Of a stretch of 64,000 nt of DNA, positions 30,213 through 46,069 are shown piece after piece. Positions within the stretch are counted from its first letter, which is position 1; every line of letters begins with the position of its first letter. The DNA is from Chloroflexota bacterium (GTDB lineage: Bacteria > Chloroflexota > Anaerolineae > JACRMK01): NCBI GenBank assembly GCA_016235055.1, contig JACRMK010000046.1:34958-98957 (forward strand). Reading direction: 5' to 3'. Both the position numbers and the translations under genes were made by a program. The notes below the pieces were generated by a model, which was given only the letters and a program-made list of their open reading frames with translations, ran no database searches and was not told where the DNA came from.

Positions 30213-31037
30213 TTACTTCGCCAGTTGGGCGAAGACGATCATGCGCTGGTTGTCGATCAGGTACGGATAACAGGTGATCAGCGTCAGCGTCGGTTCGGTC
30301 GTCGCCTGCAGCACGCTGACGTCCGTCGGCTCGACAATGCGCCGGTTGCGGACGACGTATGTAAACTTCGCTTCCTTCGAATAGACCTGCACCTCGTCCC
30401 CGGCTTTCAGGTCGCCGATATAGCGGAAGACCTCGCCGAAGACATCATCGTGCCCCGATATGACCATGTTGCCGCGCTGGCCCGGATTGGTCGAGCCCGC
30501 CCGGTGTCCCGCGCCTTTCTTGAGCGCTTCCCAATCGTCGCCCTCGACGACCAGCGAATCGACGTTGATCGCCGGGATGACGATGCGCACCGGCTGCTGC
30601 GGGCCGGGCGTCGGAATAGCGACAGGCACGACCTGCTTGAGCACGCCCTTGAACCGCTCCGGCGTGCCCGCCGAGGGCGGCTGTGAAGCGCCGGGCAGCG
30701 TGGCCGCCGCCTCGGGACTGCCGGTGCGCACCTGGCCGCTGCCGGACTGCGCCGCCGCGCTCTCGCGGTTGAGCTCCTGCAGACGAAAGAAGATGGCGAG
30801 GCCGGCAATCAGCAGTCCCGCCACCGCAAAGACCTCGACAGCCAGCAGCAGGCGATTGCCGACGCGCATGAAGTTGATGTCGGGGCGCGCCGTGCCCGCC
30901 GCCTTGAGCTTCTGCGCGCCGCGCTCCATCGCGCTGGTCTGCGACTCCATGCGCGTGCTGAAGCGTTGCCGCGCGCGTTTCTCGGCCAGCAGTTTTTCCA
31001 GCTCTTCAATCGACAGGTCGTTCAGGTGGGTGCTCAT
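30213..31037 (-). CDS. Class E-like sortase (transpeptidase)
   Basis: N-terminal TM anchor, catalytic TLITCYP (TLxTC) motif and conserved His (MVISGHDD). Confidence 0.8.
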   Translation of the reverse strand: MSTHLNDLSIEELEKLLAEKRARQRFSTRMESQTSAMERGAQKLKAAGTARPDINFMRVGNRLLLAVEVFAVAGLLIAGLAIFFRLQELNRESAAAQSGSGQVRTGSPEAAATLPGASQPPSAGTPERFKGVLKQVVPVAIPTPGPQQPVRIVIPAINVDSLVVEGDDWEALKKGAGHRAGSTNPGQRGNMVISGHDDVFGEVFRYIGDLKAGDEVQVYSKEAKFTYVVRNRRIVEPTDVSVLQATTEPTLTLITCYPYLIDNQRMIVFAQLAK

Positions 31038-31254
31038 ACGACGCCCGTCGGCGCAATCGAAATTATACCCGCGCTATGGATGACGGGCAACTGGCGACCC
31101 GGCAACGGGTATACCGACAAACTGTCGGGGACTCAATCGGTCGTCATGCCGGAATGGCGGATTGGTCAGCCGTGCGGCCCCGACACTTTTGCGGTATACC
31201 CTTTCAATTGGGTGCATTTCGGATTGGGGCCGGGCGCATGCAACTCAACGAGGC

Positions 31255-31370
31255 GTCACTCCCGCGGAAGCGGGAGTCCAGGGACAACACCGCTGGATGC
31301 CCGCGCTGGTCGGCGGCGAGCCACCGTGGTCTCATACCGTATTGGTTGCGCCCCGGAACTGAAAATACCC
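31255..31370. repeat. Intergenic repeat, family 4 partial copy
   Basis: CGTATTGGTTGCGCCCCGGAACTGAAAATACC is the reverse complement of the module at 11942; CACTCCCGCGGAAGCGGGAGTC hairpin. Confidence 0.5.
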
Positions 31371-31467
31371 CCTTTCAACGTCTCAAGCATAGCGAACTGC
31401 CTGCGCAGGGGAGCGATTTGCGAGCTCATCGGGTCGGTATTCATAGGGCGTGCCGGGCGCGCCCGGA

Positions 31468-32397
31468 TCACACGTAGACGGTGCAGCCGCGCGTCTCAAG
31501 CTCCACGAGCCATGTGGGTGCGGCCAGCATCTTGTTCCAGCGCAGATCGAGCTTTTCCAGATGAGGCAGGTTGCGGATGCCCGCAGGCAGTTGCGCCAGC
31601 CGGTTGGCGCGCAGGTCGAGGGTGCGCAGATTGCGCAGGCCGCCGAGGGTTTCCGGCAGGGCGATCAGCGCATTGTTTCGCAAGTCGAGGTCAGTCAGGC
31701 TGCGCAGGCCACCGATTGACTCCGGGAGCGTGGTCAGCCGATTGTCCTGCAATACCAGTTTCCGCAGCGCCCCGAGCGCTCCAATGGATTCCGGCAGCGA
31801 CGCCAGCCGGTTGTTCATCGCGTGCAGTTCCCGCAGGCGCGTCAACCGCCCCAGCGATTCCGGCAGCGCGCCGATCTGGTTGTTGTACACGCGCAACTCG
31901 CTCAGTTGCGTCAGGTCGCCGATGAACTCCGGTAGCGACGTGAGCCGGTTATCGGTCACGTTCAGGTAGATCAGCCTGCCGAGTTTCCCCATTGATTCGG
32001 GCATGCTCGTCAGTTGATTGTTGCTCCCGTACAGAAACGCCAGTTGGCCCAGCCTGCCGAGTGCAACAGGGAGCTCGGCCAATGCGTTGTGCCCCAGGTC
32101 GAGCATGCGCAGCGCGGTGAGCTCGCCGATGCCGCCCGGTAATGCGGTCAGCCTGTTGTCCGCGACGTTGAGCGTTTGCAGCGCGCTCAACTGCCAGAGC
32201 GAGTCGGGCAGTTCGCTCAACCGGTTGTGGTACAGGCTCAACGATGTGAGCGTAATCAGTTCGCCGATCCAGCGGGGCAGTTCGCTCAACCGATTCAGAT
32301 CGAGGTCGAGATCGGCCAGCACAGCGCTGGCGCGAATATGGTCGGGCACGCTGGCCAAGTCGCGGCCGCGCAGGCTGATGCTGGTCGGGTTGTGCAT
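31468..32397 (-). CDS. Leucine-rich repeat (LRR) protein
   Basis: About 12 tandem 23-aa repeats of LxxLxLxxNxLxxLPxxIGxLxx; no other domain; start at internal ATG (MHNPTS). Confidence 0.8.
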   Translation of the reverse strand: MHNPTSISLRGRDLASVPDHIRASAVLADLDLDLNRLSELPRWIGELITLTSLSLYHNRLSELPDSLWQLSALQTLNVADNRLTALPGGIGELTALRMLDLGHNALAELPVALGRLGQLAFLYGSNNQLTSMPESMGKLGRLIYLNVTDNRLTSLPEFIGDLTQLSELRVYNNQIGALPESLGRLTRLRELHAMNNRLASLPESIGALGALRKLVLQDNRLTTLPESIGGLRSLTDLDLRNNALIALPETLGGLRNLRTLDLRANRLAQLPAGIRNLPHLEKLDLRWNKMLAAPTWLVELETRGCTVYV

Positions 32398-32565
32398 GAT
32401 GAGGTGCCGGCATTGTAGGTGCGGCCCCGGCAATCCGCAAATCGGCGCCAGATGCGCGCACGGTTAGCAGCACAATACGCCGTCGAATCACACCTTATTG
32501 TCGGAAAGCCTACCCTTCGACAGGCTCAGGGTACGTGTGTCATTGCGCCCGGCCGCTGGCCGTGT

Positions 32566-33723: not shown

Positions 33724-34659
33724 ATGAACTGGACTGCAAACGACCTGCCCGACTTACGCAATCGAACCGTGATTGTCACCGGCGCGAACAGCGGCGTCGG
33801 GTTTGAATCGGCGCGCGGCCTGGCGCAGCACGGCGCGACCGTGGTCATGGCCTGCCGCGACGAGGGGCGGGGCCAGCGCGCGGCCGACGCGATCCGTGCC
33901 GGTCAGCCGGATGCGGCGCTCGCGGTCATGCCGCTCGATCTGGCCGATCTCTCCTCCGTGCGGCGCTTCGCTGATGCGTTCACGGCGCGCCATGACCGGC
34001 TCGATGTGCTGCTGAACAACGCCGGCGTCATGGCCATCCCGTACCGCACGACGGCCGATGGCTTCGAGATGCAGTTCGGCACGAACCACCTGGGGCACTT
34101 CGCGCTGACGGGGCGGCTGCTGGACGCGCTGCGGCGCACACCGGGCGCGCGGGTGGTCGTGGTCAGCAGCGGCATGCACCGTCGTGGCCGCGTTGCGTTT
34201 GATGATCTGCAATCGAAGCGAGCGTACAGCCGCTATGGCGCATACGGGCAGAGCAAGCTCGCCAACCTGCTGTTCGCCTACGAGTTGAATCGCCGCTTCG
34301 CCGCGAACGGCGTGCCGGCGATCGGCGTGGGCGCGCATCCCGGCTATGCGGCGACCAACCTGCAGACGGCGGGGGCGCGCATGGACGGCGCACGCATGAC
34401 GGAGACGATCACGAACGCCGTGACCAATCTGGTGGCGCAGAGCTCGGCCATGGGCGCGCTGCCGCTGATGTACGCGGCTGCCGCACCGGGCGTCAGCGGC
34501 GGCGACTACATCGGCCCAACCGGGTTGGCGGGCATGCGCGGCTACCCCGGCCAGGCCAAGTCGAGCACCGCCTCGCACAGCCGCGCCGATGCCGCGCGCC
34601 TGTGGGAGAGCTCCGAGCAGCTGACTGGCGTCTCGTACAACCTGCCGCCCGCGCCGTGA
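33724..34659 (+). CDS. Short-chain dehydrogenase/reductase (SDR) family oxidoreductase
   Basis: TGANSGVG (TGxxxGxG) cofactor motif, NNAG, catalytic YGQSK (YxxxK). Confidence 0.85.
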   Translation: MNWTANDLPDLRNRTVIVTGANSGVGFESARGLAQHGATVVMACRDEGRGQRAADAIRAGQPDAALAVMPLDLADLSSVRRFADAFTARHDRLDVLLNNAGVMAIPYRTTADGFEMQFGTNHLGHFALTGRLLDALRRTPGARVVVVSSGMHRRGRVAFDDLQSKRAYSRYGAYGQSKLANLLFAYELNRRFAANGVPAIGVGAHPGYAATNLQTAGARMDGARMTETITNAVTNLVAQSSAMGALPLMYAAAAPGVSGGDYIGPTGLAGMRGYPGQAKSSTASHSRADAARLWESSEQLTGVSYNLPPAP

Positions 34660-34754
34660 CGCTTGCCCGCGCTGGGGCGGGTGGTACAATAGACCGTGCT
34701 GCGCCCGGCGCAGCTCAAAATCACGCTATTCCGGTCACCGGCAAGGAGAACCAG

Positions 34755-35606
34755 ATGGCAATCAAGACGGTCGGTGTTGTCGGCTGCGGTTTGATGGGGT
34801 CGGGTATTGTCGAAGTCTGCGCGAAGAGCGGCTACGACGTCATTGTAATGGAGATGAACGACGGGCTGTTGAAGCGCGGGCTGGAGCGCATCGATGCCAG
34901 CCTGGCCAAAGCGGTTGAGCGCAAGAAGCTGGACGCCGCCGCCCGCGACGGCATCCGGGCGCGCATCCGTGGCACCACCGGTTTCGCCGATTTCCGCGAC
35001 GCCGATTTCGTCGTCGAGGCGGCGATCGAGAACCTCGACGAGAAGAAGCAGATCTTCGCGCAGCTCGACACAGTCACCCGGCCGGACGCAACTCTGTCGT
35101 CGAACACGTCGTCGCTGTCGATCATCGACATGGCGTCGGCGACGAAGCGGCCGGCGCAGGTGCTCGGCATGCACTTCTTCAATCCGGTGCCGGTCATGCC
35201 GCTGCTCGAGATGGTGCGCTCGTTCCTGACGAGCGAGGCGACCTACCAGGCGGCGCGGGCTTTCGGCGAATCGCTCGGCAAGACCGTGGTCGTGGCGAAG
35301 GACAAGCCGGGCTTCATCGTCAACGCGTTGCTGATCCCGTACCTGCTCGACGCGATCCGCATGGTCGAAGAGGGCGCCGCGTCACGCGAGGATATCGACG
35401 CCGGCATTCATCTGGGGCTGAACCACCCGATGGGCCCGCTGACGCTGACGGACTTCGTGGGGCTGGACACGACGCTCTACGTGGCCGACGCGATGTTCGC
35501 GGAGACGAAGAACGCGCGTTACGCCGCGCCGACGCTGCTGCGCCGCATGGTCACGGCCGGGCACATGGGCCGCAAGAGCGGCAAGGGGTTCTACGAGTAT
35601 GAGTGA
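34755..35606 (+). CDS. hbd: 3-hydroxyacyl-CoA / 3-hydroxybutyryl-CoA dehydrogenase
   Basis: N-terminal VGVVGCGLMGSGI Rossmann motif; AAGGAGAA upstream of internal ATG; C-terminal dimerisation domain. Confidence 0.9.
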   Translation: MAIKTVGVVGCGLMGSGIVEVCAKSGYDVIVMEMNDGLLKRGLERIDASLAKAVERKKLDAAARDGIRARIRGTTGFADFRDADFVVEAAIENLDEKKQIFAQLDTVTRPDATLSSNTSSLSIIDMASATKRPAQVLGMHFFNPVPVMPLLEMVRSFLTSEATYQAARAFGESLGKTVVVAKDKPGFIVNALLIPYLLDAIRMVEEGAASREDIDAGIHLGLNHPMGPLTLTDFVGLDTTLYVADAMFAETKNARYAAPTLLRRMVTAGHMGRKSGKGFYEYE

Positions 35607-35751
35607 GGCTTGGGGGCTTGCAAAAGCCTCGGCTGGCACACTTGCCACGCTGCCGCCCATAGCGGTTATGGGCGGCAGCGAGTTGATTCCCCCCGTTTGG
35701 TCCGTCGGCGGCCAGAACGACGGTCTGGCCGCCAATCACGAACTCGGCAGA

Positions 35752-35997
35752 TTACGGGCAGGATGAATTGACCACAGCGGTGTGCATGCCGATGTTTCCA
35801 TTGATGTTATCGCGAGCCATCGGAATACTCCCCATCGTGGCGTCGGCGATCATGTTGCGCGCTCCGGCATATCCGGTGCCCGGAGCGGGGCACGTTCCGC
35901 CATCAGCCTGTGCCGGGCGCGGCGCGAGCGCGCCTGCACCCAATGCCAGGATAGCCAGCAACGCCCAAACCTTGATAGAGCGAATATTCATGTGCAT
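35752..35997 (-). CDS. Small secreted protein (signal peptide plus about 50-aa Gly/Ala-rich mature part with 2 Cys)
   Basis: GGAGGT 9 nt upstream of ATG; predicted signal peptide ending ...RPAQA; flanked by terminator-like hairpins and its own upstream region. Confidence 0.6.
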   Translation of the reverse strand: MHMNIRSIKVWALLAILALGAGALAPRPAQADGGTCPAPGTGYAGARNMIADATMGSIPMARDNINGNIGMHTAVVNSSCP

Positions 35998-36393
35998 GGT
36001 GGTCAGACCTCCAGTCTGAAGATGCGCTTTTGATCATGCTTATCCATTGCCGCGGAATTGAAGCCGAGACACAATTACACCGTTGTTGATCCGCAGTCAG
36101 ATTAGGGCGACATGTGAGCCTCCTTGAGAGTCCGCGCGCCTGCCCTTTGTGACGCACTGCAGTCGTGTCGTCGGAGCGAACGTTGCTATCGGGCAATGGC
36201 GTCTTGCAGCTAGCCTGCTTCGGGCACGCGCTCGACGGTCTGGATGTACTCCTCTATGAGCGTAGAACCCTGGGCTGTCTCGCGCTCCTCGCGCTTACGG
36301 CGGGTCGACCAATCGCGTCCGCCTTAATCTCCCTCCGGGCACGGTCGCTAGGCGTGCCCGGAGATCGACGCAATTGAAACCCGCTCGGCGATT

Positions 36394-37308
36394 CTAGCCG
36401 GGTTTCACGACCGGCAAACCGGCCTTGGCCCACGCGGCGAAGCCGCCGGCCAGGCTTTTTACGTTGGTATAGCCCAGCAGGCGCAGCGCCATCATCGTCT
36501 GCGCACCGTTGTGCCCGATGGAACAATGGGTCACGATGGGCGCGTTTTTGTCCTGCGGGAGCTTGTCCAGGTTCTTGAATAGGTTGCGGATCGGCACGTT
36601 CAGCGCGCCGACGATCATGCCGTTGGTTTTCAGATCCTGCTCGTTGCGCACATCGAGCACGACCGGCTTGCCCGCGGCCAACTGGTCTTTGAGACCAGCC
36701 GGCGCGACGGCGTTGTAGTCGTCCGGGAGGTTGCTCAGGTACTGGTCAACCAGTGCCAGCCGGTCGGCATCGACCGCGGCGGCTTTGCCCGCCACCGGCG
36801 CCGCGATCGGTCCTTTGACCACGGGCAGATTGGCGCCCGTCCAGCCGGCAAAGCCGCCCGCCACGCTTTTCACGTTCGTGTAGCCCAGCAGGTGCAGCGC
36901 CATCATGCTCTGCGCCCCGTTGTGCCCGATCCCACAGTACACCACGATGGGCGCCGTCTTGTCCTGCGGCAGCTTGTCCAGGTTCTTGGCCAGCGTGCGG
37001 ATCGGGATGTTGACTGCCCCCTCGATGTAACCATTCGTCGCCACGTCCTGGGCGCTCCGCACGTCCACCAGGAACGGCTTGCTGCCGGCCAGTTGCTCCT
37101 GCAAGCCAGCGGGTGTGACCGCCCAATTGCTGTCGGGCAGGGTCTCGATGTAGTTCTGGACCATGGCGCGGACGTCGAGCGCGGCTTTGGTTGGCGCTTG
37201 CGTCGGCGCCGGCGCGGGCGCAAGCGGGCCGCACGCCACCGTGCCGACAAAGGCAAGCAGCGTGAGCAGCATGGCGAACAACACAGTGAACCGATATTGG
37301 TTTCTCAT
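36394..37308 (-). CDS. Tandem-rhodanese sulfurtransferase lipoprotein
   Basis: Lipobox-like TVAC; two rhodanese domains each with active-site Cys loop (YCGIGHNG, HCSIGHNG). Confidence 0.85.
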   Translation of the reverse strand: MRNQYRFTVLFAMLLTLLAFVGTVACGPLAPAPAPTQAPTKAALDVRAMVQNYIETLPDSNWAVTPAGLQEQLAGSKPFLVDVRSAQDVATNGYIEGAVNIPIRTLAKNLDKLPQDKTAPIVVYCGIGHNGAQSMMALHLLGYTNVKSVAGGFAGWTGANLPVVKGPIAAPVAGKAAAVDADRLALVDQYLSNLPDDYNAVAPAGLKDQLAAGKPVVLDVRNEQDLKTNGMIVGALNVPIRNLFKNLDKLPQDKNAPIVTHCSIGHNGAQTMMALRLLGYTNVKSLAGGFAAWAKAGLPVVKPG

Positions 37309-37320
37309 GTCTCTCCTTGA

Positions 37321-37963
37321 TTATTTTCGCCCTAAGGCAATATGCGCAGCTGTTCGATAGACTTGTTCGTCACCGTCGACGTATGTTTGCAGGGCCCGCC
37401 CGATATCGCCCTCTACCGCCCGCGCCACGGCAGCGCGCTCATCGGGGCCCATGGTACTTACGGCGGGGACACATCCCCCAACGCTCGCCAGAATCGGAGC
37501 AATGATCTGCGGACTGCGCGGCTCACGCACGTTGTAGGCGCGAGCCGTGATCGTCACATCGATAAACCCGGCCGCCTCCAGCAGCGCCTCGAGTTCGCTC
37601 GCGTCGCCAAGATTGAAGAACGGAAGTAGGACGGAGACGCTGGTAGCAAAGCGATGGGCGAGCGCTACCCAGATGAGCCGCACCTTCGGATGGTGTTCAA
37701 TGGAGCGCCAGACACAACTGGCGGCGCGCCCGCATGGCTGGATCGATGTCCACGCCCACGACGATGCCGGCGCACCCCACGCGCGGTGCGACCCGCCGGG
37801 CGACGATTCCCGTGCCGCACGCCACATCCAAAACTCGCTCGCCGGGCAGTGGGTTGGCGATTTCGAGCAGGAGCGTCGCCCATGATCCCATCTGGTAGGT
37901 AACGAGGTTCTTCTCATAGTTCTCGGCTGCGGCCAGTGCGGGATTGGGTTGTGGTTGAGTCAT
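37321..37963 (-). pseudogene. Class I SAM-dependent methyltransferase, reading frame disrupted
   Basis: Motif I VLDVACGTG in ORF 37697..38005; C-terminal MTase-like part continues in a different frame (ORF 37321..37917). Confidence 0.5.
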
Positions 37964-38202
37964 GTGCTCTTCGATCGCCGTGTCGATATGGCATGCGCGT
38001 TTCATTCCCCTATGAACCCAGTTTAGCCAACCGGGCCAGAATGTATATGCTCAAAATCAACCGTTTATCGGCGCAAGTGCGCCGCAGGTCCCGCGGCACC
38101 ACTAGTCAATTTGGACTGTGCAAGAAAAAACCTGACGGTGCCAATGGGCCCGTCAGGTCTGCGCCTGCGTGCGAAGTTAGCGGCCGCCCGGCCGCTTGCG
38201 GC

Positions 38203-41200
38203 TCAGATCAGGCGGCGATCCAAAGCGGCGCGCATGGCAGCCGAACGAGAGGGCACGTCCAGCTTGGCGTAGACCGACCGCAGATGACCGCGCACGGTAT
38301 GCACGCTGATAACCAGCCGGTCCGCGATTTCCTTGTCGCTTAGGCCCTGAGCGAGCCAGCGCAGCACCTCCATCTCGCGCGCGGTCAGGGGTTCGCCGGG
38401 CGTTGGCGGTGCACCTTCGTCAACGGGCCCGCCATGCGACTCGGGAGAGGGGTGTTGCCGCTTGGGACCCAGTGCCTCCAGCGCGGCGCGCGCGCGCGCC
38501 GCGTCGGGCAGCGCCTGCACTTCCTCAAAACCGGCCAACGCGCGGGAAAGATAGTCGTGCGCGCGGACAGCGTCGCCGCGCGCGCGTTCGAGGTCGCCGA
38601 GGTCGGCCAACGTGCGACCCGTTTGCCAGGGGGTGCCTAATTGCTGGAACAGCGCCAGTGCCTGCTGGAAGCGTGTTTCCGCTGAGGGGTATTCGCCGGC
38701 CAGCCGGTGAGCCACGCCCCAGGCGCGATGGGCGACGGCCTGATAGAGCACATGGCCGTAGCGCATGGCCAGCGCTTCGGCGAGCGGCGCGTACCTGCGC
38801 AGCATCGGCTCGTCGGCCCGCTGCGCCGCCGTGTCGGCCATTGTGGCGAACAGATCATGGTCGCCGGGCCAGCTTCCGTTATTAAACACCTGTGGGTTGT
38901 TCGCAAATCGCTTCTGCAATGCCCCTTCCAGGTGCTGCTCCACGAGGGCGAACTCGCCCTCCGCCATTAACGGCAGCGCATGTCAGTAGTGCTGGGTGCG
39001 TCCCCACCCATCGGGCCCGACGACCGCGCCCATGATCTGGGCCGACTCGAGTCGCAGCCGGCGCGCGCGTTCGGAATCCCCGCGCATCGCATAGGCGCAC
39101 GAGAAAATGGCGGTGTGCCAGCAAGGATATTGGAACAGGTCCTGCGTGGAGCGCCGCTGCAGCGCAACCATGATTTGCTCGCTGCGGAGGACCTCGTTCC
39201 AGCGGTCGAGGCGCAGCCAAGACAGTGCCTGGCTCGCAAGTGTATGGAGGCAAAGGTCCAATGCGCGAATCTGCCCGGCCTGCGTCTGTGCTTCATCCAG
39301 ATACCGCAGCGCGTCTGTGTATTCGCCCACCGACGCCAACGCCGCGCCCAATTGCATCAAAATCCGCACACGCTCGCGCTGATCGCGGAAACGGGCATCG
39401 CGGCTCAGCGCCAACCGGCGCTGCACCAACTCTATTTGCTCGCGCAGCATGCCCTGCGCGCCATAGACCAGGGCCAGCGCGTCGAGCGCAACCGACGTGA
39501 CGACAGGGTCGTCCAGTTTTTCGGCCATATCCACGCCGGCGCGGGCGTACCGCTCGGCAGCCTCCCAGTCTGCGCTCGCTTGCCGGATCCACATGGCCGA
39601 GGAAAGGGTGGCCAGCAAGTAAACCGTTTCCACATGCGGCGGTTCCACGCTCGCTATTTCCCATGCAACGGCCAGCTGGGCCCGCGCATCGACCCGGAAG
39701 CGCTGGAAGTCGGCGCCCGCGCGCAGATTGAGCACGGCGTTCCCAAACTTGCGGCGCAAGCGAACGGCAAGCATCTTGTCACCGCTGGCCAGCGCGTCCC
39801 ACAGCGCGATCGCCTGCGCGAAGAGCGGAACCGCCAGCAAGGTGTCTCCCTGTTGGTCGTATATGTCGGCCAATTGCTCGACCACGGCGGCTTGCGTGTC
39901 CGGTTTGCGGCTGCCCTGCAGCCAGTCCAGCGCGCGGTGCAAATGCTGCGCCGCCGCGTCATACGCATGGACGGACTGAGCACGCCGCGCCGCCTTGCAG
40001 GCGTAATCGATCGCTTTGTCGCGCTCTCCGGCCGCGCTGAAGTGATAAGCCAGCGCTTCGTCGTCATCCGGATGCCGGCCCTCGATCGCCATCGCAACCT
40101 GGCGGTGAAGATGCTGGCGGCGCGGGGCCACAATATCTTCCTGCAGCGCCGACGGGATGAGCGCATGGGCAAAGACGGACAGGCTGTGCCCGCCTCGCCG
40201 CGTCTCCCGGATCAGCCCCGCGCGCCCGGCGGTCTCCAGGGCATCGATCAGCCGATCGGCCTCCAGGTCGCCCGCAATACGCAGCAGGTCAACGTCAAAT
40301 TCCCTGCCGATGATCGCCGCCAGGCGCAAGACATCCTGCACAGCAGCCGGCAGTTTCTCCACGCGCGCCCGGACCACGGCGCGCACGTTCTGCGGGATGT
40401 GGGACTGTTCCGGCGAGGGCCAGTGCCAGCGTTCTCCTGTGCGATACAGCGTGCCGTCTTCGAGCAGTCCTTTGACAACCTCCTCAATAAAGAAGGGGTT
40501 GCCTTCGGTCTGGCGATACAGGTATTCCAGAAATGCGGGCTCGACCTCGCCGCCAAAAGGCGCGGCCAGCAGCTCGCGAGCCTGCTCGAGGGTGAAGCGC
40601 GACACGCCGAGGTGCGTGCTCAGCCGCTCGCGATTGAGGTCCAGCAGCAGGTGGCCGAGGGCCGCGTTGTCGTGCAGCTCCTCCTCTCGGTAGGTCAGGA
40701 CCACCATGAGACGCATCTGGAATGCGCGGCGAGCCACGTGGCGCAGCAGGTCGAGGGTGCCTCGATCAGCCCAGTGCACGTCCTCAATAGCGAGCACGAC
40801 GGGCGTGCGCGCGGCCGGCGCAGCGCACAACTCCGCGACGCTTTCAAAGATGCGCTCTCGCTCCGAGAGCGGATCGAGCGTGGGATTTGGAGCTATGGCC
40901 GGATAGCGTGCACGCAGCGCCGGCGCGAGTGTAACGAGGTCAGCCAGGGCGAATGCGGGGAGACGCAATTCCTCGCTGGACTGCTCTAAGGCTTGCCGGA
41001 TGAACTGGGCAATGGGAGCATACGGCGTGCCGCCTTCGGCATGGCAGTCGCAGATGAACGCGCGTGCGCCGGCGCGGGACGCCCGGGAGGTGAATTCGCG
41101 CACCAGGCGCGTCTTGCCGACACCCGGCTCGCCGCTCACGAGCAGCGTATGACCTTCGCCGTCCAGCACTCGCCCGAACACGGCGTCGGCCTCGGCCAAC

Positions 41201-41253
41201 TCCCGCGCACGTCCAACAAATGGGCTGCGTAGCAGGCGTTCCAGCATTGGCAT
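38203..41253 (-). pseudogene. Large LuxR-family regulator (N-terminal AAA/NTPase, helical repeats, C-terminal LuxR HTH) interrupted by one in-frame TGA
   Basis: Walker A GEPGVGKT near N-terminus; LuxR HTH (EIADRLVISVHTVRGHLRSVYAKL) at C-terminus; ORFs 38983..41253 and 38203..38967 are in the same frame, separated by TGA at 38983-38985 plus 5 sense codons. Confidence 0.7.
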
Positions 41254-41792: not shown

Positions 41793-42485
41793 CTAGCCGC
41801 CGCTGCGGCGGCCGGGCAGTCCCGCAGAGTCTTTCGGTGCCGTGCGCATCTTTTCCATCATCCGCATGCGCACCTGCGCCAGCGCGTGCTTGAGCGGCGT
41901 CACGCGCAACAGCAGCAGTAACGCGAGCACCGTGCCGTACACCAGCGGCAGGCCGACGTTGCCTTGCAAACGCAGGAAGTCGCCTTTGACCGATAGAACG
42001 AAGTGCACGACCACCAGCGGCGCAATCAGATAGACCAGCTTGTGCAGGCGCGTCCAGCCTTTGCCAAGCCGTTTCATCCAGTAGCGGAACGACGTGACCG
42101 CCAGCGGCACCAGCAGCAGGAACGCCGTCGTGCCGATGATGATGTACCACTTGCTGCCGACGTCGGCCCAAATCAACCCGAAATCGAACGTGTAGTCCAC
42201 CCCGACGAACGCCAGCAGGTGCAGGCTGGCGTACATGAAGCCATAGAGCCCCAGCGCCTTGCGGCGCCGCAGCACCGCCTTCCAGCCGCCGATCGAGGCC
42301 AGCGGCGTGCAGGCCAGCGACAGCAGCAGGAAGGTCAGCGCGACCAGCCCCGTGCGCTGCTCGATCGCCTGGATCGGGTTGGATGTCAGGTTGCGCGCCA
42401 GCGCATCGGCAGCCAGCCACGCCAGCGGCAGCCAGCCGCCGATGTGGACGAGCGCCTGCAGCGGGTCAGGCAAGTGATGTTTCAT
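41793..42485 (-). CDS. msrQ: Protein-methionine-sulfoxide reductase heme-binding subunit MsrQ (YedZ-like)
   Basis: 230 aa from internal ATG, 6 TM helices, conserved His residues for heme b; immediately downstream of msrP. Confidence 0.85.
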   Translation of the reverse strand: MKHHLPDPLQALVHIGGWLPLAWLAADALARNLTSNPIQAIEQRTGLVALTFLLLSLACTPLASIGGWKAVLRRRKALGLYGFMYASLHLLAFVGVDYTFDFGLIWADVGSKWYIIIGTTAFLLLVPLAVTSFRYWMKRLGKGWTRLHKLVYLIAPLVVVHFVLSVKGDFLRLQGNVGLPLVYGTVLALLLLLRVTPLKHALAQVRMRMMEKMRTAPKDSAGLPGRRSGG

Positions 42486-42535
42486 GACCGGACGTAGACC
42501 TGGCGGGTTTGCAAAACCCGCGAGGTCTTTCTCGC

Positions 42536-43507
42536 TCAATAGTTCTTCCGCAAGTCCAGCCCCGCGTAGAGGCCGGCGACCTGCTCGGCATAGCCGTTGA
42601 ACGGCTGCGTCGTCCGCCGGCGCAATTCGCCGATGCGCCGCTCGCTGCCCTGCGACCAGCGCGGGTGATTGACCTCCGGATTCACATTAGCGTAGAAGCC
42701 ATATTCATTCGAGGCAATCGTGCTCCACATCGTCTTCGGCTGCGTGTCGGTTAACTCGATCTTGACGACCGCCTTGATCGACTTGAACCCGTACTTCCAC
42801 GGCACGACCAGCCGGATGCCGCCGCCGTTCGCGGCCGGTAGTTCGCCGCCGTACAGGCCGGTCGCCAGCAGCGTCAGGTCGTTCATCGCCTCGTCGATAC
42901 GCAGCCCTTCCTGGTACGGCCAGGGGTAGAACGGCGAGCGCTGGCCGGGGAAGTCGTCCGGCTTGAAGAGCGTCTCGAAGCGCACATATTTCGCGGCTGC
43001 CGTCGGTTCGACCGCCTTCAGCAGCTTCGCGAGCGGGAAGCCGACCCACGGGATGACCATGCTCCACGCTTCGACGCAGCGCAGGCGGTAGATGCGCTCC
43101 TCGGGCTGGAAGCGCTTGATCATCTCCTCGACGGCGTACTTGCCCGGCTTGCCTACCAGGCCCGACACCTGCACGTCCCACGGCGACGTCTTGAAGTTGG
43201 CGGCGCGCGGCGCAACGCCCTCTTTCTCTTCCGTGAACTCGTAGTAGTTGTTGTAGTGCGTGATGTCCTGGTACGACGTCGCCGGATCGCCCAGTTCGTC
43301 CTTGCGCGCGGACGCGCCCGGCTGGGCCGCAGGCGGCGCCGTGGCCGAAGGCGCCGGCTGCGCGTCGTTGCCTGCCAGCGGACCGCACGCCGCAAGTGCC
43401 ATGCTGCCCGCCACCACGCCGGTGGCCTTGATAAACTCGCGCCGCGAGAGGTACACCGCCTTCGGCGTGACCTCGGATTCCGCGATGCGCGGATAACGGC
43501 TCTTCAT
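42536..43507 (-). CDS. msrP: Protein-methionine-sulfoxide reductase catalytic subunit MsrP (YedY-like molybdopterin oxidoreductase)
   Basis: Twin-arginine signal (SRREFIK), sulfite-oxidase-fold motifs (ITHYNNYYEF, RLRCVEAW, GGGIRLVVPWKYGFKSIKAV). Confidence 0.9.
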   Translation of the reverse strand: MKSRYPRIAESEVTPKAVYLSRREFIKATGVVAGSMALAACGPLAGNDAQPAPSATAPPAAQPGASARKDELGDPATSYQDITHYNNYYEFTEEKEGVAPRAANFKTSPWDVQVSGLVGKPGKYAVEEMIKRFQPEERIYRLRCVEAWSMVIPWVGFPLAKLLKAVEPTAAAKYVRFETLFKPDDFPGQRSPFYPWPYQEGLRIDEAMNDLTLLATGLYGGELPAANGGGIRLVVPWKYGFKSIKAVVKIELTDTQPKTMWSTIASNEYGFYANVNPEVNHPRWSQGSERRIGELRRRTTQPFNGYAEQVAGLYAGLDLRKNY

Positions 43508-43531: not shown

Positions 43532-44083
43532 CTAAGCCGGCTCATTCAGCAATGTCACGATGGCGGCTTCCAGTTCATCATACCGCCCCTCGCCGATATG
43601 CGTGAATCGAATGCGGCCGTGCTTGTCGATCAGGTACAACGTCGGCCAGAACTGATTGCGATACGCGCGCCACGTCGCACCGTCATTGTCCTGCGCCACC
43701 GCATATGGCACGCCCAACCGGGCCACGGCATCCTTCAGATTGCCAAGGTCGGCCTCGTAGCCGAACTCCGGGAAATGGTTGCCGATGATCGTCAGCCCTT
43801 GCGGGCCGTACTGCGCATGCCAGCCCCTCAACGAGGGGATCACATTACGGCAGTTGATTCAGCCAAACGTCCACATATCGAGCAGCACGACGCGCCCGCG
43901 CAGATCGGCCAGCCGCAGCGGGCGGTCGGTGTTGAGCCAGACCGTGTTGGTCAGCTCCGGCGCCGGGCCGAGATCAACCAGTTGCGCCTTTGGCGCGCCG
44001 GCGGCTTGCGGCAACTGCGCAGCCGCCTGCGGAGCGCACGCCGCCAAACATACGAGGGCCAACAGCCAGATAGCATGTCTCAT
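43532..44083 (-). CDS. TlpA/DipZ-type thiol:disulfide oxidoreductase lipoprotein with in-frame TGA at first active-site position (candidate selenoprotein, U-x-x-C)
   Basis: ORFs 43859..44083 and 43532..43843 are in the same frame; TGA at 43859-43861 gives ...[19 protein letters not shown]..., matching the WTYTCINC redox motif of this family with Sec in place of Cys; AGGAGG 6 nt upstream of ATG; lipobox LAAC. Confidence 0.7.
43803..43850 (-). promoter_or_regulatory. Candidate SECIS-like hairpin downstream of the in-frame UGA
   Basis: mRNA CCCCUC-guu-GAGGGG hairpin about 20 nt 3' of UGA, nested in a longer GCCGUA...UACGGC pairing; not verified against a SECIS model. Confidence 0.3.
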
Positions 44084-44150: not shown

Positions 44151-45383
44151 TTACGGCAGCGTAAAGCGGAACGTCGTCCCGGCACCCGGTTCGCTCGCGA
44201 CGCTGATGTCGCCGCCGTGCGCCTGCACCAGCCCGCGCGCGATCGCCAGCCCCAGCCCGGAACCGCCGGTCGCGCGACTGCGCGACTTCTCGCCGCGGTA
44301 GAACTGCTCGAACACGCGCGCCAGATCCTCGGTGCGAATCCCCTCCCCGCTGTCGCTGATGCTCACGCCAACCTGGCCGCCCTCGCGTGCCGCCTGCACG
44401 ACCACGCGCCCGCCGGCCGGCGTGTGCCGCAGGCCATTGCCGACCAGGTTGCTCAGCACGCGACCAATGCGTGCCGCGTCCATCGTGACCGGATCCACAC
44501 CGGGCGCGACAGCCCCTTCCAGCACGACGCCCTGGCGAGCCGCCATGGCGGAAAAGCTTTCCAGCGTGTCGGACACCAGGTCGGCGAGCGAATTCGGCGC
44601 GCGGTCCAGCCGCAGGCCGCCCGCGTCGATCTGGGCCATCTGGAACAGGTCGTCAATCAGCGCCGACAGCGCGCGCACGTCGCGCTGCGCGCCTGCCAGG
44701 TACCGGCGCGCCGTCTGCGGATCGTCCACCACGTCGTCGGCCAGCGCCTCGACAACCGCACGGATCGACGCGAGCGGGGTCTGCAGATCATGGCCCACCC
44801 AGGCGATCAGGTCAGCGCGGAGCCGCGCGACCTCCTGCTGGCGCTCGGCCGCTTCCTGCAACTGCGCCGCCATGCGGTTGAAGGCGCGTGCCAGCGATGC
44901 CACCTCGTCGGTGCCGTGCGCCTCGACGCGCACGCCGAGCTCGCCCCCGGCCACCGCCTGCGCCGCGGACTCGACCTGCCGGATGCGGTCGGTCACAGCG
45001 CTGGATAGAAAATATCCGAGCGCCATCGCCATACCACCGGCAAAGACCAGCAGGATCGTCGCCAGCGCCAGATCATGCGCGCTGGCGAACATCAGGCGCG
45101 CAGTCAGCCATACATTGACGAACGTCAGCACGCTGGACAGGGCATGCCCGGCCAGCAGCGCCCATCGCAGCGTCGGCGCGTACGACAGCCAACCCAGCCG
45201 GTAGGCCGCAAAAGCCGCCGCGCCGGAAATGATCGCCGTCACGCCCAGGAACGCCGTCATCAGCCCGAGCTCGGCCGGCGGCGGCTGCATGACGAGCGTA
45301 AACAGCGCCAGCGCCGCCAGGGTGGCGATCAGGACGCCGGCGGCATAGCGCGCGGCCAGTGGTATGCGAGTGATAGCGCTCAT
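44151..45383 (-). CDS. Sensor histidine kinase (HAMP-HisKA-HATPase)
   Basis: Two N-terminal TM helices; H-box EVARLRADLIAWVGHDLQTPL; N, G1, G2 boxes (GLGLAIAR, GAGTTF); ATGA overlap with response-regulator gene. Confidence 0.85.
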   Translation of the reverse strand: MSAITRIPLAARYAAGVLIATLAALALFTLVMQPPPAELGLMTAFLGVTAIISGAAAFAAYRLGWLSYAPTLRWALLAGHALSSVLTFVNVWLTARLMFASAHDLALATILLVFAGGMAMALGYFLSSAVTDRIRQVESAAQAVAGGELGVRVEAHGTDEVASLARAFNRMAAQLQEAAERQQEVARLRADLIAWVGHDLQTPLASIRAVVEALADDVVDDPQTARRYLAGAQRDVRALSALIDDLFQMAQIDAGGLRLDRAPNSLADLVSDTLESFSAMAARQGVVLEGAVAPGVDPVTMDAARIGRVLSNLVGNGLRHTPAGGRVVVQAAREGGQVGVSISDSGEGIRTEDLARVFEQFYRGEKSRSRATGGSGLGLAIARGLVQAHGGDISVASEPGAGTTFRFTLP

Positions 45384-46069
45384 GGTTCGAACTTGTACCC
45401 CACGCCCCACACGGTCAGCAGGCGGCGCGGATTGGAGGCGTCGGCCTCGATCTTTTCGCGCAGACGCCGCACGTGCACCGTCACCGTGCCTGGGTCGATG
45501 TATTCCGCGCCACCCCACACGCGCTCCAGCAGTTGATCGCGCGTGAACACCTGGCGCGGGTGTCGTGCGAACAGGTAGAGCATGTCAAACTCCCTGGCCG
45601 TGAGTATGGCCGGCGCGCCGGCAACCGTGACGCTGCGCGCACGTGGGTCCACGCACAGGTCGCCATGCTGGATGGCGCGCTCGCCGTCGGCGCCCTTGTC
45701 TCCGCCGGCGCGGCGCAGCACAGCGCGCACGCGACTGACCAGCTCTTGCGGGCTGAACGGCTTAACCATGTAGTCGTCGGCGCCCATCTCCAGTCCGGCA
45801 ATGCGGTCAATCTCCTCGCGTCGCGCGGTGAGCATGATGATCGGCACGTCGCTCTGCTCGCGCAGCCAGCGGGTGAGCGTGTAGCCGTCCAGACCCGGCA
45901 GCATCAGATCGAGCACGAGCAGAGCGGGCAGGCGCTGCGACAGCCACGTACGCGCCGACAGACCGTCCGCCGCGATGTGAACGGTGTAGCCCGAGCGCCG
46001 GAGGTATAAGCCGATCACTTCAGCGATGCTCGGTTCATCTTCAACGACAAGGATTGTTTTCTCGGACAT
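45380..46069 (-). CDS. OmpR-family response regulator (REC plus winged helix)
   Basis: ILVVEDEP, phospho-acceptor region LLVLDLMLPGLDG, C-terminal ...LTVWGVGYKF winged-helix signature. Confidence 0.9.
   Translation of the reverse strand: MSEKTILVVEDEPSIAEVIGLYLRRSGYTVHIAADGLSARTWLSQRLPALLVLDLMLPGLDGYTLTRWLREQSDVPIIMLTARREEIDRIAGLEMGADDYMVKPFSPQELVSRVRAVLRRAGGDKGADGERAIQHGDLCVDPRARSVTVAGAPAILTAREFDMLYLFARHPRQVFTRDQLLERVWGGAEYIDPGTVTVHVRRLREKIEADASNPRRLLTVWGVGYKFEP

Follow-up and report, generated by a model that had tools for sequence, protein, structure and literature searches.

A small gene of a Chloroflexota bacterium encodes a predicted exported two-cysteine protein of an undescribed family with conserved methionines

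The small gene and its locus

The window analyzed here is a stretch of 64,000 nucleotides of contig JACRMK010000046.1 from a Chloroflexota bacterium (assembly GCA_016235055.1), and the subject of this work is a small gene on its minus strand, at positions 35752-35997. The open reading frame (ORF) runs from ATG to TAA and encodes a precursor of 81 amino acids, MHMNIRSIKVWALLAILALGAGALAPRPAQA followed by DGGTCPAPGTGYAGARNMIADATMGSIPMARDNINGNIGMHTAVVNSSCP. Read manually, the N-terminus has the layout of a Sec signal peptide, with a basic n-region (Arg6 and Lys9), the hydrophobic core WALLAILALGAGALA and then an Ala-Gln-Ala (AQA) site, while the part that would remain after cleavage contains only two cysteines, Cys36 and Cys80. 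A ribosome-binding site precedes the start codon, and the soil-metagenome homologues described below (L001-L003) are likewise preceded by GGAGG or AAGGAG at a similar spacing. The precursor with its ribosome-binding site, the signal peptide, and a mature region of about 50 residues with a cysteine near each end had all been proposed in a first-pass annotation made from the sequence alone; each was found again here, with the minus strand, which that annotation did not give, now assigned. The same annotation described the product as Gly/Ala-rich, which is true but mild, as glycine and alanine make up 30-31% of the small protein. The more telling feature is its four methionines, with a mature composition of 8% Met and 10% charged residues.

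The gene lies within a 787-bp gap between the stop codons of hbd (35606) and of a rhodanese gene (36394), which leaves 145 bp on its 3′ side and 396 bp on its 5′ side and agrees with the first-pass description of a non-coding stretch of roughly 800 bp with hairpins on both sides (Table 1). The 3′ region, with its two hairpins, folds better than shuffled sequences (z = -3.9). In the 396-bp upstream region, folding is no better than in shuffles and a promoter scan returned no sigma-70 consensus, and an Rfam scan of positions 35400-36600 gave only a sub-threshold microRNA match and no family. Because it is flanked by hairpins and has an upstream region of its own, the small gene appears to be its own transcription unit. 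To this extent the earlier description of a stand-alone gene holds, but members of the family to which it belongs recur beside genes for large regulators, rhodaneses and DUF1059 proteins, and the window itself has the order regulator, rhodanese, small gene.

Table 1. Coordinates of the features discussed, numbered within the window unless a locus is named
Feature	Position	Strand	Remark
Coding sequence of the 81-aa precursor, including stop	35752..35997	-	Identical to NCBI 'MAG: hypothetical protein HZB53_10910 [Chloroflexi bacterium]'
Ribosome-binding site GGAGG	36008..36012	-	10 nt upstream of the ATG of the small gene
Predicted Sec signal peptide, residues 1-31	35905..35997	-	Manual -3/-1 rule; homologues align at AxA site
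Mature 50-aa domain, D32-P81	35755..35904	-	Cys36, Cys80; family-invariant N48, M49, M55, M60, G67, G70, M71
11-bp GC-rich hairpin, 17 nt past the stop, without U-tract	about 35706..35734	-	Probable terminator of the small gene
Perfect 14-bp inverted repeat, 5-nt loop, between convergent hbd and small gene	35648..35680	.	Possibly a bidirectional terminator
12-bp GC hairpin right after the rhodanese stop	36333..36363	-	Probable terminator separating rhodanese from small gene
396-bp upstream intergenic region	35998..36393	-	Presumed own promoter of the small gene
3-Hydroxyacyl-CoA dehydrogenase gene (hbd), convergent	34602-35606	+	Downstream neighbor of the small gene
Exported tandem-rhodanese protein, lipoprotein-like signal	36394..37308	-	Immediately upstream, same strand as the small gene
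Class I S-adenosylmethionine (SAM) methyltransferase, broken	37321-38005 (junction 37729-37738)	-	Between regulator and rhodanese
LuxR-type STAND regulator, two ORFs	38203..41253	-	38983-41253 (756 aa, AAA_16+TPR); 38203-38967 (254 aa, TPR+GerE)
MsrQ-like Ferric_reduct membrane protein	41793-42539	-	Same strand as the small gene
MsrP-like Oxidored_molyb protein with twin-arginine (TAT) signal	42536-43507	-	Same strand as the small gene
TlpA/ResA-like exported thioredoxin-fold lipoprotein, apparently split	43532-44083	-	74-aa ORF and 103-aa ORF
HAMP histidine kinase	44151-45518	-	Follows the TlpA/ResA-like gene
Repeats GCGCCCGGCGGGTT and 29-nt CCCCGCGGGAGGG...	L026 4019-4032/4750-4763 and 4882-4910/5217-5245		Candidate shared regulatory sites

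Evidence that the reading frame is a gene

In DNA of 65% GC, chance ORFs of this size are common, and 71 ORFs of at least 30 amino acids lie within 6 kb around the locus. Codon usage within the frame is also atypical, as indicated by a third-position GC content (GC3) of 0.68, compared to 0.84-0.92 in the neighboring genes, and a local GC content of about 0.58. Both observations would fit a chance ORF in a GC-rich intergenic region. Conservation decides against this. A word-indexed search returned an identical protein (HZB53_10910) and three soil-metagenome homologues (L001-L003) that share 57-75% identity with it. In codon alignments with homologues, third-position changes dominate (e.g., 15/11/31), and the ratio of nonsynonymous to synonymous substitution rates (dN/dS) is 0.12-0.52 across the pairs with these three. 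The mature part is the most constrained, more so than the leader (dN of 0.09 versus dS of 0.80 against L001), and the identical protein occurs with the same neighbors in two independent assemblies. Loss of the frame in close relatives had been named by the first-pass annotation as what would count against the gene; instead, the frame is conserved, and homology searches gave hundreds of relatives.

Since the frame is conserved, and this conservation outweighs both the frequency of chance ORFs and the low GC3, the substitution pattern shows that the ORF is a real gene under purifying selection. Together with the conserved ribosome-binding site and hundreds of homologues that share a fixed architecture, it refutes the chance-ORF explanation, to which we give practically no credence. 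That the gene encodes a real exported protein of a new family is, in our judgment, nearly certain.

Extent of the family

We searched with a profile of the mature region against 1.84 billion representatives at 50% identity (E ≤ 1e-3) and obtained 68 proteins, nearly all 70-105 residues long and with the match at the C-terminal end. A broader profile searched against 5.8 billion clusters at 90% identity (E ≤ 1e-3) gave 398 clusters, and a metagenome scan added a further 182 places. The names given to family members in their sources are "hypothetical protein" throughout. Most members come from uncultured soil Chloroflexota, Gemmatimonadota and Dormibacterota. With taxa taken from source names and from GTDB species representatives, where the genome scan used a narrower alignment (A5), the family is found within Chloroflexota in Bellilinea and other Anaerolineae, in Aggregatilineales and in Chloroflexia, and beyond them in Ca. 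Dormibacterota, Gemmatimonadales and Actinomycetes (among them one cultured Intrasporangium), which makes four phyla in total. The copy in Intrasporangium sp. DVR (L033) is located at the end of a contig. The domain spans 46-48 residues with the consensus CPAPGTGxxGAxNMLxDxTMxxxPMxxDAxQGNAGMxxAVxxSxC. The window protein matches the hidden Markov model (HMM) of the family with 83 bits (E = 1e-24) and carries all of its marks, that is, an export signal, exactly two cysteines with the last at the C-terminus, and N48, M49, M55, M60, G67, G70 and M71.

Scans of the window protein against Pfam and NCBIfam (E ≤ 10) returned no match, and scans of 63 members returned none within the domain. The weak NCBIfam matches that members do show (JUQZ_fam_ocin, ExtJ and lipoprotein models) are confined to the signal peptides. 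A profile search of PDB sequences returned noise only (E ≥ 0.45), there was no fold match, and a full-text literature search for the family sequence motifs found no paper. The family is large, undescribed and uncharacterized, with no curated family or solved fold that matches it, and the first-pass statement that no family is recognizable stands.

Export, cysteines, methionines and fold

Architecture was counted in 202 members, and residue conservation was taken from an alignment of 245 non-identical sequences to the family HMM. An N-terminal hydrophobic segment is present in 198 of the 202 members, and a lipobox-like motif precedes the domain in 63 (about 30%; lipoprotein-type examples are L007, L012 and L101). 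Exactly two cysteines lie within the domain in 197 members. In 171 of the 202, the last of these lies within 0-1 residue of the C-terminus, and its column is occupied by Cys in 95% of the aligned sequences, the remaining 5% being gaps, with zero substitutions. The first cysteine instead takes one of four positions relative to the invariant N48, namely -12 (136 members), -6, -4 or -1, and lies inside a C-P-x-P motif in 70% of members. Because the partner cysteine shifts while the C-terminal cysteine stays fixed, a Cys36-Cys80 disulfide probably joins the N- and C-termini of the mature domain.

The four methionine columns are conserved at 100% (M49), 94% (M55), 93% (M60) and 99% (M71), with Leu at no more than 0.5% and Ile absent. 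In ordinary hydrophobic cores, Met and Leu exchange freely. The fixation of these four positions across four phyla, although the two residues normally interchange, points to a role of the thioethers themselves. Other conserved residues are N48 and G67 (each 100%), G70, G45 and A46 (99%), A74 (98%) and D52 (92%), while His is common beside the methionines (position 51, 65%; position 73, 38%). In an AlphaFold2 (AF2) model the domain reaches a predicted local distance difference test (pLDDT) score of about 80-85, with short helices at residues 45-61 and a helix at 65-77, and the mature domain is therefore predicted to fold as a small helical unit after cleavage at AQA/D.

Some members and leaders deserve separate mention. 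Locus L004 (5531-7048) holds two tandem family paralogues of 93 and 91 residues, one of which has Asn-Val in place of the invariant Asn-Met, followed by a 193-residue secreted protein with a similar leader. The leader motif R-S-[IML]-K-x-W, placed in the n-region before the signal-peptide core, occurs in several Chloroflexota family members, namely the window protein (residues 4-9, positions 35973-35988), P0003, P0008, P0029 and P0033, and is also present in the unrelated 193-residue protein of L004 (6467-7048). The motif may be a leader signature specific to a lineage.

Gene neighborhoods in the window and across the family

Within the window, a LuxR-STAND regulator, the methyltransferase, the exported rhodanese and the small gene follow one another on the minus strand (Table 1). 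The regulator is 36% identical over 512 residues to that of family locus L026. The end of another ORF precedes its 254-residue ORF in an independent assembly too, and the split into two ORFs seems to be real. The methyltransferase lacks about 172 bp relative to two independent assemblies (L114 and L115), where the gene is intact and encodes 288 residues; a collapse in the assembly would account for this, as would a deletion in the strain. The rhodanese is an internal tandem duplication (a 300-nt repeat at 73% identity) with an unusual active-site loop, C-[GS]-I-G-H-N-G, that lacks Arg. Neither a DUF1059 gene nor a paralogue of the small gene is present in the window. Further upstream on the same strand, at 5.8-9.5 kb, lie the MsrP/MsrQ-like pair, the TlpA-like thioredoxin and the histidine kinase, with four genes and a 540-bp gap between msrQ and the small gene. 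The TlpA/ResA-like gene appears to be broken exactly at its expected CxxC motif, as a frameshift or pseudogene. A tblastn search with the window MsrP and MsrQ found zero copies in 113 other family loci, and a link with msrPQ beyond the window was rejected on this result. Elsewhere in the window, a sortase gene stands beside a leucine-rich-repeat protein (30213-32433, minus strand).

The closest homologues lie on short contigs with unrelated flanks, and recurring neighbors show in the longer loci. A LuxR-STAND regulator is found immediately upstream of the member in L005/L006, L011 and L055, and another heads the L026 cluster of regulator, rhodanese, member and cupin, so that the order regulator, rhodanese, member is common to L026 and the window. 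In L021 the order differs from that of the window, with a PDZ-GerE regulator, the member, a rhodanese orthologous to that of L026, and a molybdopterin oxidoreductase. A GerE regulator lies near the member in L042, a SARP/BTAD-STAND-TPR regulator is divergent from it in L025, and a STAND plus winged-helix regulator lies just downstream in L027 and L030-L032. In Gemmatimonadales, a divergent regulator with BTAD, transmembrane (TM) and PD40 segments is present in 28 of 36 loci of one cluster. Counted over 31 dereplicated clusters, 13 have a large regulator no farther than 3.5 kb from the member, as do 11 of the 21 clusters with at least 2 kb of flank; set against an assumed background of 60-150 such regulators per 4,000 genes, this gives a rough binomial P of 5e-7 to 3e-3. 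The family is associated non-randomly with large regulators. A conserved Gemmatimonadales module is seen in L101 (1572-5373) and about 30 similar soil contigs, where the BTAD-TM-PD40 regulator is divergent from a family lipoprotein, which is followed by a second lipoprotein of ~190 residues; the leaders of the two lipoproteins are almost the same.

Small cysteine proteins make up the other recurring neighbors. A DUF1059 gene lies immediately upstream of the member in L003 (3-176), L005 (5633-5815), L011 (5749-5925) and L055 (4281-4649), and in P0063 a DUF1059 domain is fused N-terminally to the family domain via a hydrophobic segment. These DUF1059 proteins show the pattern Cys-x6-Cys ... His-x4-His without a signal peptide and carry the JGI label "predicted small metal-binding protein"; a sequence search found no solved structure for DUF1059, and a full-text search for the label found no paper. 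Group 1m [NiFe]-hydrogenase clusters hold DUF1059 along with two unassigned single-TM proteins of 82-92 residues (Ray et al., 2022; PMC9561532). Of the rhodaneses, those in L026 and L021 are cytoplasmic, and most family loci have no rhodanese. In L026, short direct repeats recur in the upstream regions of three genes, namely the rhodanese gene, the member and the one after it (Table 1).

Proposed role

Our overall reading is that the family protein is a miniprotein of the envelope, closed by a disulfide, whose methionine thioethers form a site for soft metal or redox chemistry, and we advance it tentatively, at slightly less than an even chance. The precursor would be exported by the Sec pathway and cleaved at AQA/D to leave a mature domain of about 50 residues, in which oxidation of Cys36 and Cys80 would produce a disulfide-closed helical miniprotein. 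This product would be retained in the cell envelope, free in the present Chloroflexi metagenome-assembled genome (MAG) and lipid-anchored in Gemmatimonadales, where it would display a thioether site made up of M49, M55, M60 and M71. The likeliest task of the site is the binding of a soft ligand, for which a Cu(I)-type ion is the first choice, with reversible methionine oxidation as a close second. For three or four Met thioethers in an oxidizing compartment, binding of a soft cation such as Cu(I) or Ag(I) would be the most economical chemistry, and it has a precedent in CopK, CusF and relatives. Taken by itself, the proposal that the site binds a soft metal is possible but doubtful. Expression may be an output of the neighboring large one-component regulator, alongside small cysteine proteins (rhodanese here, DUF1059 elsewhere), and since such regulators recur and such proteins co-locate with the family, a small regulon answering thiol- and thioether-reactive stress is suggested.

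Several observations weigh against this reading. The invariant methionines could instead form a specific packing or partner-binding surface, and an AF2 model of the mature part alone reaches a pLDDT of only 66. No copper-homeostasis gene (CopA/CopZ, multicopper oxidase, CusCBA, CsoR/CueR) lies beside members in the annotated loci. Signal peptides are missing from the rhodaneses in L026 and L021 and from every DUF1059 protein, which are therefore unable to contact an exported protein. The window regulator is 2.2 kb away with two genes between, and it is not an orthologue of the L005/L011 regulator, while the estimate of regulator enrichment rests on assumed background frequencies.

Alternative explanations

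The first-pass annotation took the size and architecture to fit a secreted signaling or antimicrobial peptide and suggested a look for exporter or modification genes nearby. Neither proposal fared well. Pheromones and bacteriocins normally diversify, whereas here a 46-residue domain is conserved over four phyla with positions that are 93-100% invariant. About 30% of members carry lipoprotein-type signals and would hence be anchored rather than released, and about 110 family loci show no recurrent ABC exporter, immunity gene or peptide-modifying enzyme. It is because of this conservation, the lipoprotein variants and the absence of accessory genes from these loci that an antimicrobial or diffusible-signal function is poorly supported, and the protein is probably envelope-resident, neither an antibiotic nor a diffusible pheromone. 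A Sec-dependent bacteriocin in particular would be consistent with the size, the signal peptide and the two cysteines, and three members have weak NCBIfam "..._ocin" matches; these fall in the signal peptide only, the family loci show no double-glycine leader, and purifying conservation across four phyla contrasts with the diversification and narrow taxonomic range expected of a bacteriocin, which leaves this explanation very unlikely. Even less credible, and to our minds extremely improbable, is a precursor of a ribosomally made, post-translationally modified peptide (RiPP) with enzymatically modified Cys or Met. It would resemble the bufferins, whose precursors also have Sec signal peptides and cysteines and which protect from copper (PMC11626156), but in the loci examined the genes called beside members include no MNIO/DUF692, DUF2063, YcaO or dedicated radical-SAM gene, the precursor has no Pfam match, and the window's SAM methyltransferase, which lies two genes upstream, does not recur as a neighbor.

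Other explanations keep the protein in the envelope but assign it a different task. A sacrificial methionine buffer resembling MrpX would mop up hypochlorite-type oxidants in the envelope, after which MsrPQ, the periplasmic methionine sulfoxide reductase, would return its methionines to the reduced state. The MsrP/MsrQ-like pair, thioredoxin and histidine kinase upstream in the window are what such a buffer might be expected to accompany, extracytoplasmic function (ECF) sigma or anti-sigma genes lie near the members in L020, L004, L011 and L009, and MrpX is itself a small signal-peptide protein encoded with yedYZ (PMC4436054). This analogy is nevertheless an unlikely one, as MrpX is a low-complexity protein of 20% Met and 44% charged residues, the methionines here occupy fixed, invariant positions of a folded domain, and msrP and msrQ were not found in the 113 other family loci searched and are separated from the small gene in the window. 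The regulators invite a different explanation, namely an extracytoplasmic partner or signal of the adjacent regulator, either as a co-sensor bound by the PD40 propeller or as an RRNPP-like peptide sensed by TPR/STAND domains. Adjacency to large sensor-regulators recurs across phyla despite differing DNA-binding domains (GerE versus wHTH/BTAD), the divergent BTAD-TM-PD40 gene is frequent in the Gemmatimonadales cluster, and RRNPP propeptides are also small, Sec-exported and encoded beside TPR regulators. On the other hand, an exported domain is lacking from the STAND/TPR regulators found in Chloroflexota, importers of the Opp type do not recur, the family domain is kept in full across phyla where pheromones diversify, and lipid-anchored variants are unable to diffuse. 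Adjacency is explained equally well if the gene is a regulated target, and we likewise rate this explanation as unlikely. A broader version, which we regard as improbable, makes the family the exported half of a cross-phylum sensor module, in which the four-Met miniprotein would report exposure to soft metals or oxidants through Met ligation or oxidation and signal to the neighboring regulator. In Gemmatimonadales the BTAD regulators would receive the signal directly, at their periplasmic PD40 propeller, and in Chloroflexota the route would be indirect, with cytoplasmic rhodanese or DUF1059 co-induced as protectants. Finally, the C-terminal cysteine might carry sulfane sulfur or exchange disulfides with the exported rhodanese in a SoxY-like envelope sulfur or thiol relay. 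The near-invariance and terminal position of this cysteine would suit such a relay, as would the C-P-x-P context of the first one, the rhodaneses adjacent in the window (exported), L026 and L021, and the molybdopterin oxidoreductase that follows in L021. Yet the L026 and L021 rhodaneses are cytoplasmic, the majority of loci have none, a second cysteine that migrates but is always present better suits a structural disulfide, and the invariance of the methionines is left unexplained, which makes the relay quite improbable.

Significance

If the reading of a disulfide-closed miniprotein with a methionine site is right, a widespread unannotated family, of at least 398 clusters at 90% identity, is named and delimited, with an N-to-C disulfide and four invariant methionines as a simple, testable signature. 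It would be a new minimal scaffold among the few methionine-based envelope proteins for metal or oxidant handling, and it would offer a handle on the targets of the LuxR-STAND and BTAD-PD40 regulators, which are abundant and poorly understood in these phyla. Chemical synthesis of so short a protein is feasible, which makes the hypotheses directly testable. Should it prove to have an ordinary structural role in the envelope, only the annotation of "hypothetical" genes would improve, while a true sensor module would represent a new kind of peptide-dependent envelope stress sensing.

Comparison with known systems

One of the closest known systems is MrpX of Azospira suillum, a Met-rich periplasmic peptide that works with YedYZ/MsrPQ and is encoded in the yedYZ operon under SigF/NrsF control (Melnyk et al., 2015; PMC4436054). 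Like MrpX, the window protein is small and has a signal peptide, its candidate functional residues are methionines, and an msrPQ-like pair is encoded on the same strand. Unlike MrpX, it appears to be folded and disulfide-closed, and it is encoded outside the msrPQ operon, the pair lying 5.8 kb upstream. Bufferins, in turn, are MNIO-modified RiPP metallophores that need MNIO (DUF692) and DUF2063 partners and belong to the DUF2282 or BUF_6/12Cys families (PMC11626156; PMC12452194). The likeness consists of a signal peptide with a small Cys-containing core, an envelope location and the theme of metal stress; the precursor differs in that it contains no DUF2282 or BUF_6/12Cys domain and has no MNIO or DUF2063 gene among its neighbors.

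Two regulatory systems resemble the arrangement of genes more than the product. RRNPP peptides (Phr, PapR, NprX, AimP), known from Bacillota and their phages, are processed to 5-10 residues, re-imported and fast-diversifying. The family shares with them a small Sec-exported product next to a large TPR regulator in many loci (2.2 kb off in the window), but its 46-residue domain is conserved over four phyla, the mature part is more constrained than the leader, and about 30% of members are lipoprotein-like. In the AfsR-afsS pair of Streptomyces, a SARP/STAND regulator acts on a small gene next to it, whose product, AfsS, is cytoplasmic and contains repeats. Here, too, a large BTAD/STAND regulator stands beside a tiny gene that is likely its direct target, although the family product is exported and unrelated to AfsS in sequence.

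On the side of the protein itself, mycobacterial Rv0203-type proteins are small, secreted and helical, with a terminal disulfide, and bind heme via Tyr and His. A signal peptide, a small mature protein that is all-helical by prediction and a cysteine near each end are common to both, but the Rv0203-type proteins are about twice as long, and NCBIfam and PDB searches showed no similarity. CopK, CusF and PcoE/SilE are exported proteins of less than 100 residues whose metal site is built from three or four Met thioethers, sometimes joined by His; they are beta-rich or disordered and lie in cop, cus, pco or sil operons. No sequence or fold similarity to them was detected, in keeping with the Pfam and NCBIfam results for the window protein and the 63 members, and cop, cus, pco and sil genes were not found in the window flanks or the annotated family loci. 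The window protein differs further in that it is predicted to be helical and disulfide-closed. The likeness is a functional analogy, in which a small exported protein offers four conserved methionines as candidate ligands. The family, itself undescribed, belongs among this known kind of small exported Met/Cys envelope proteins.

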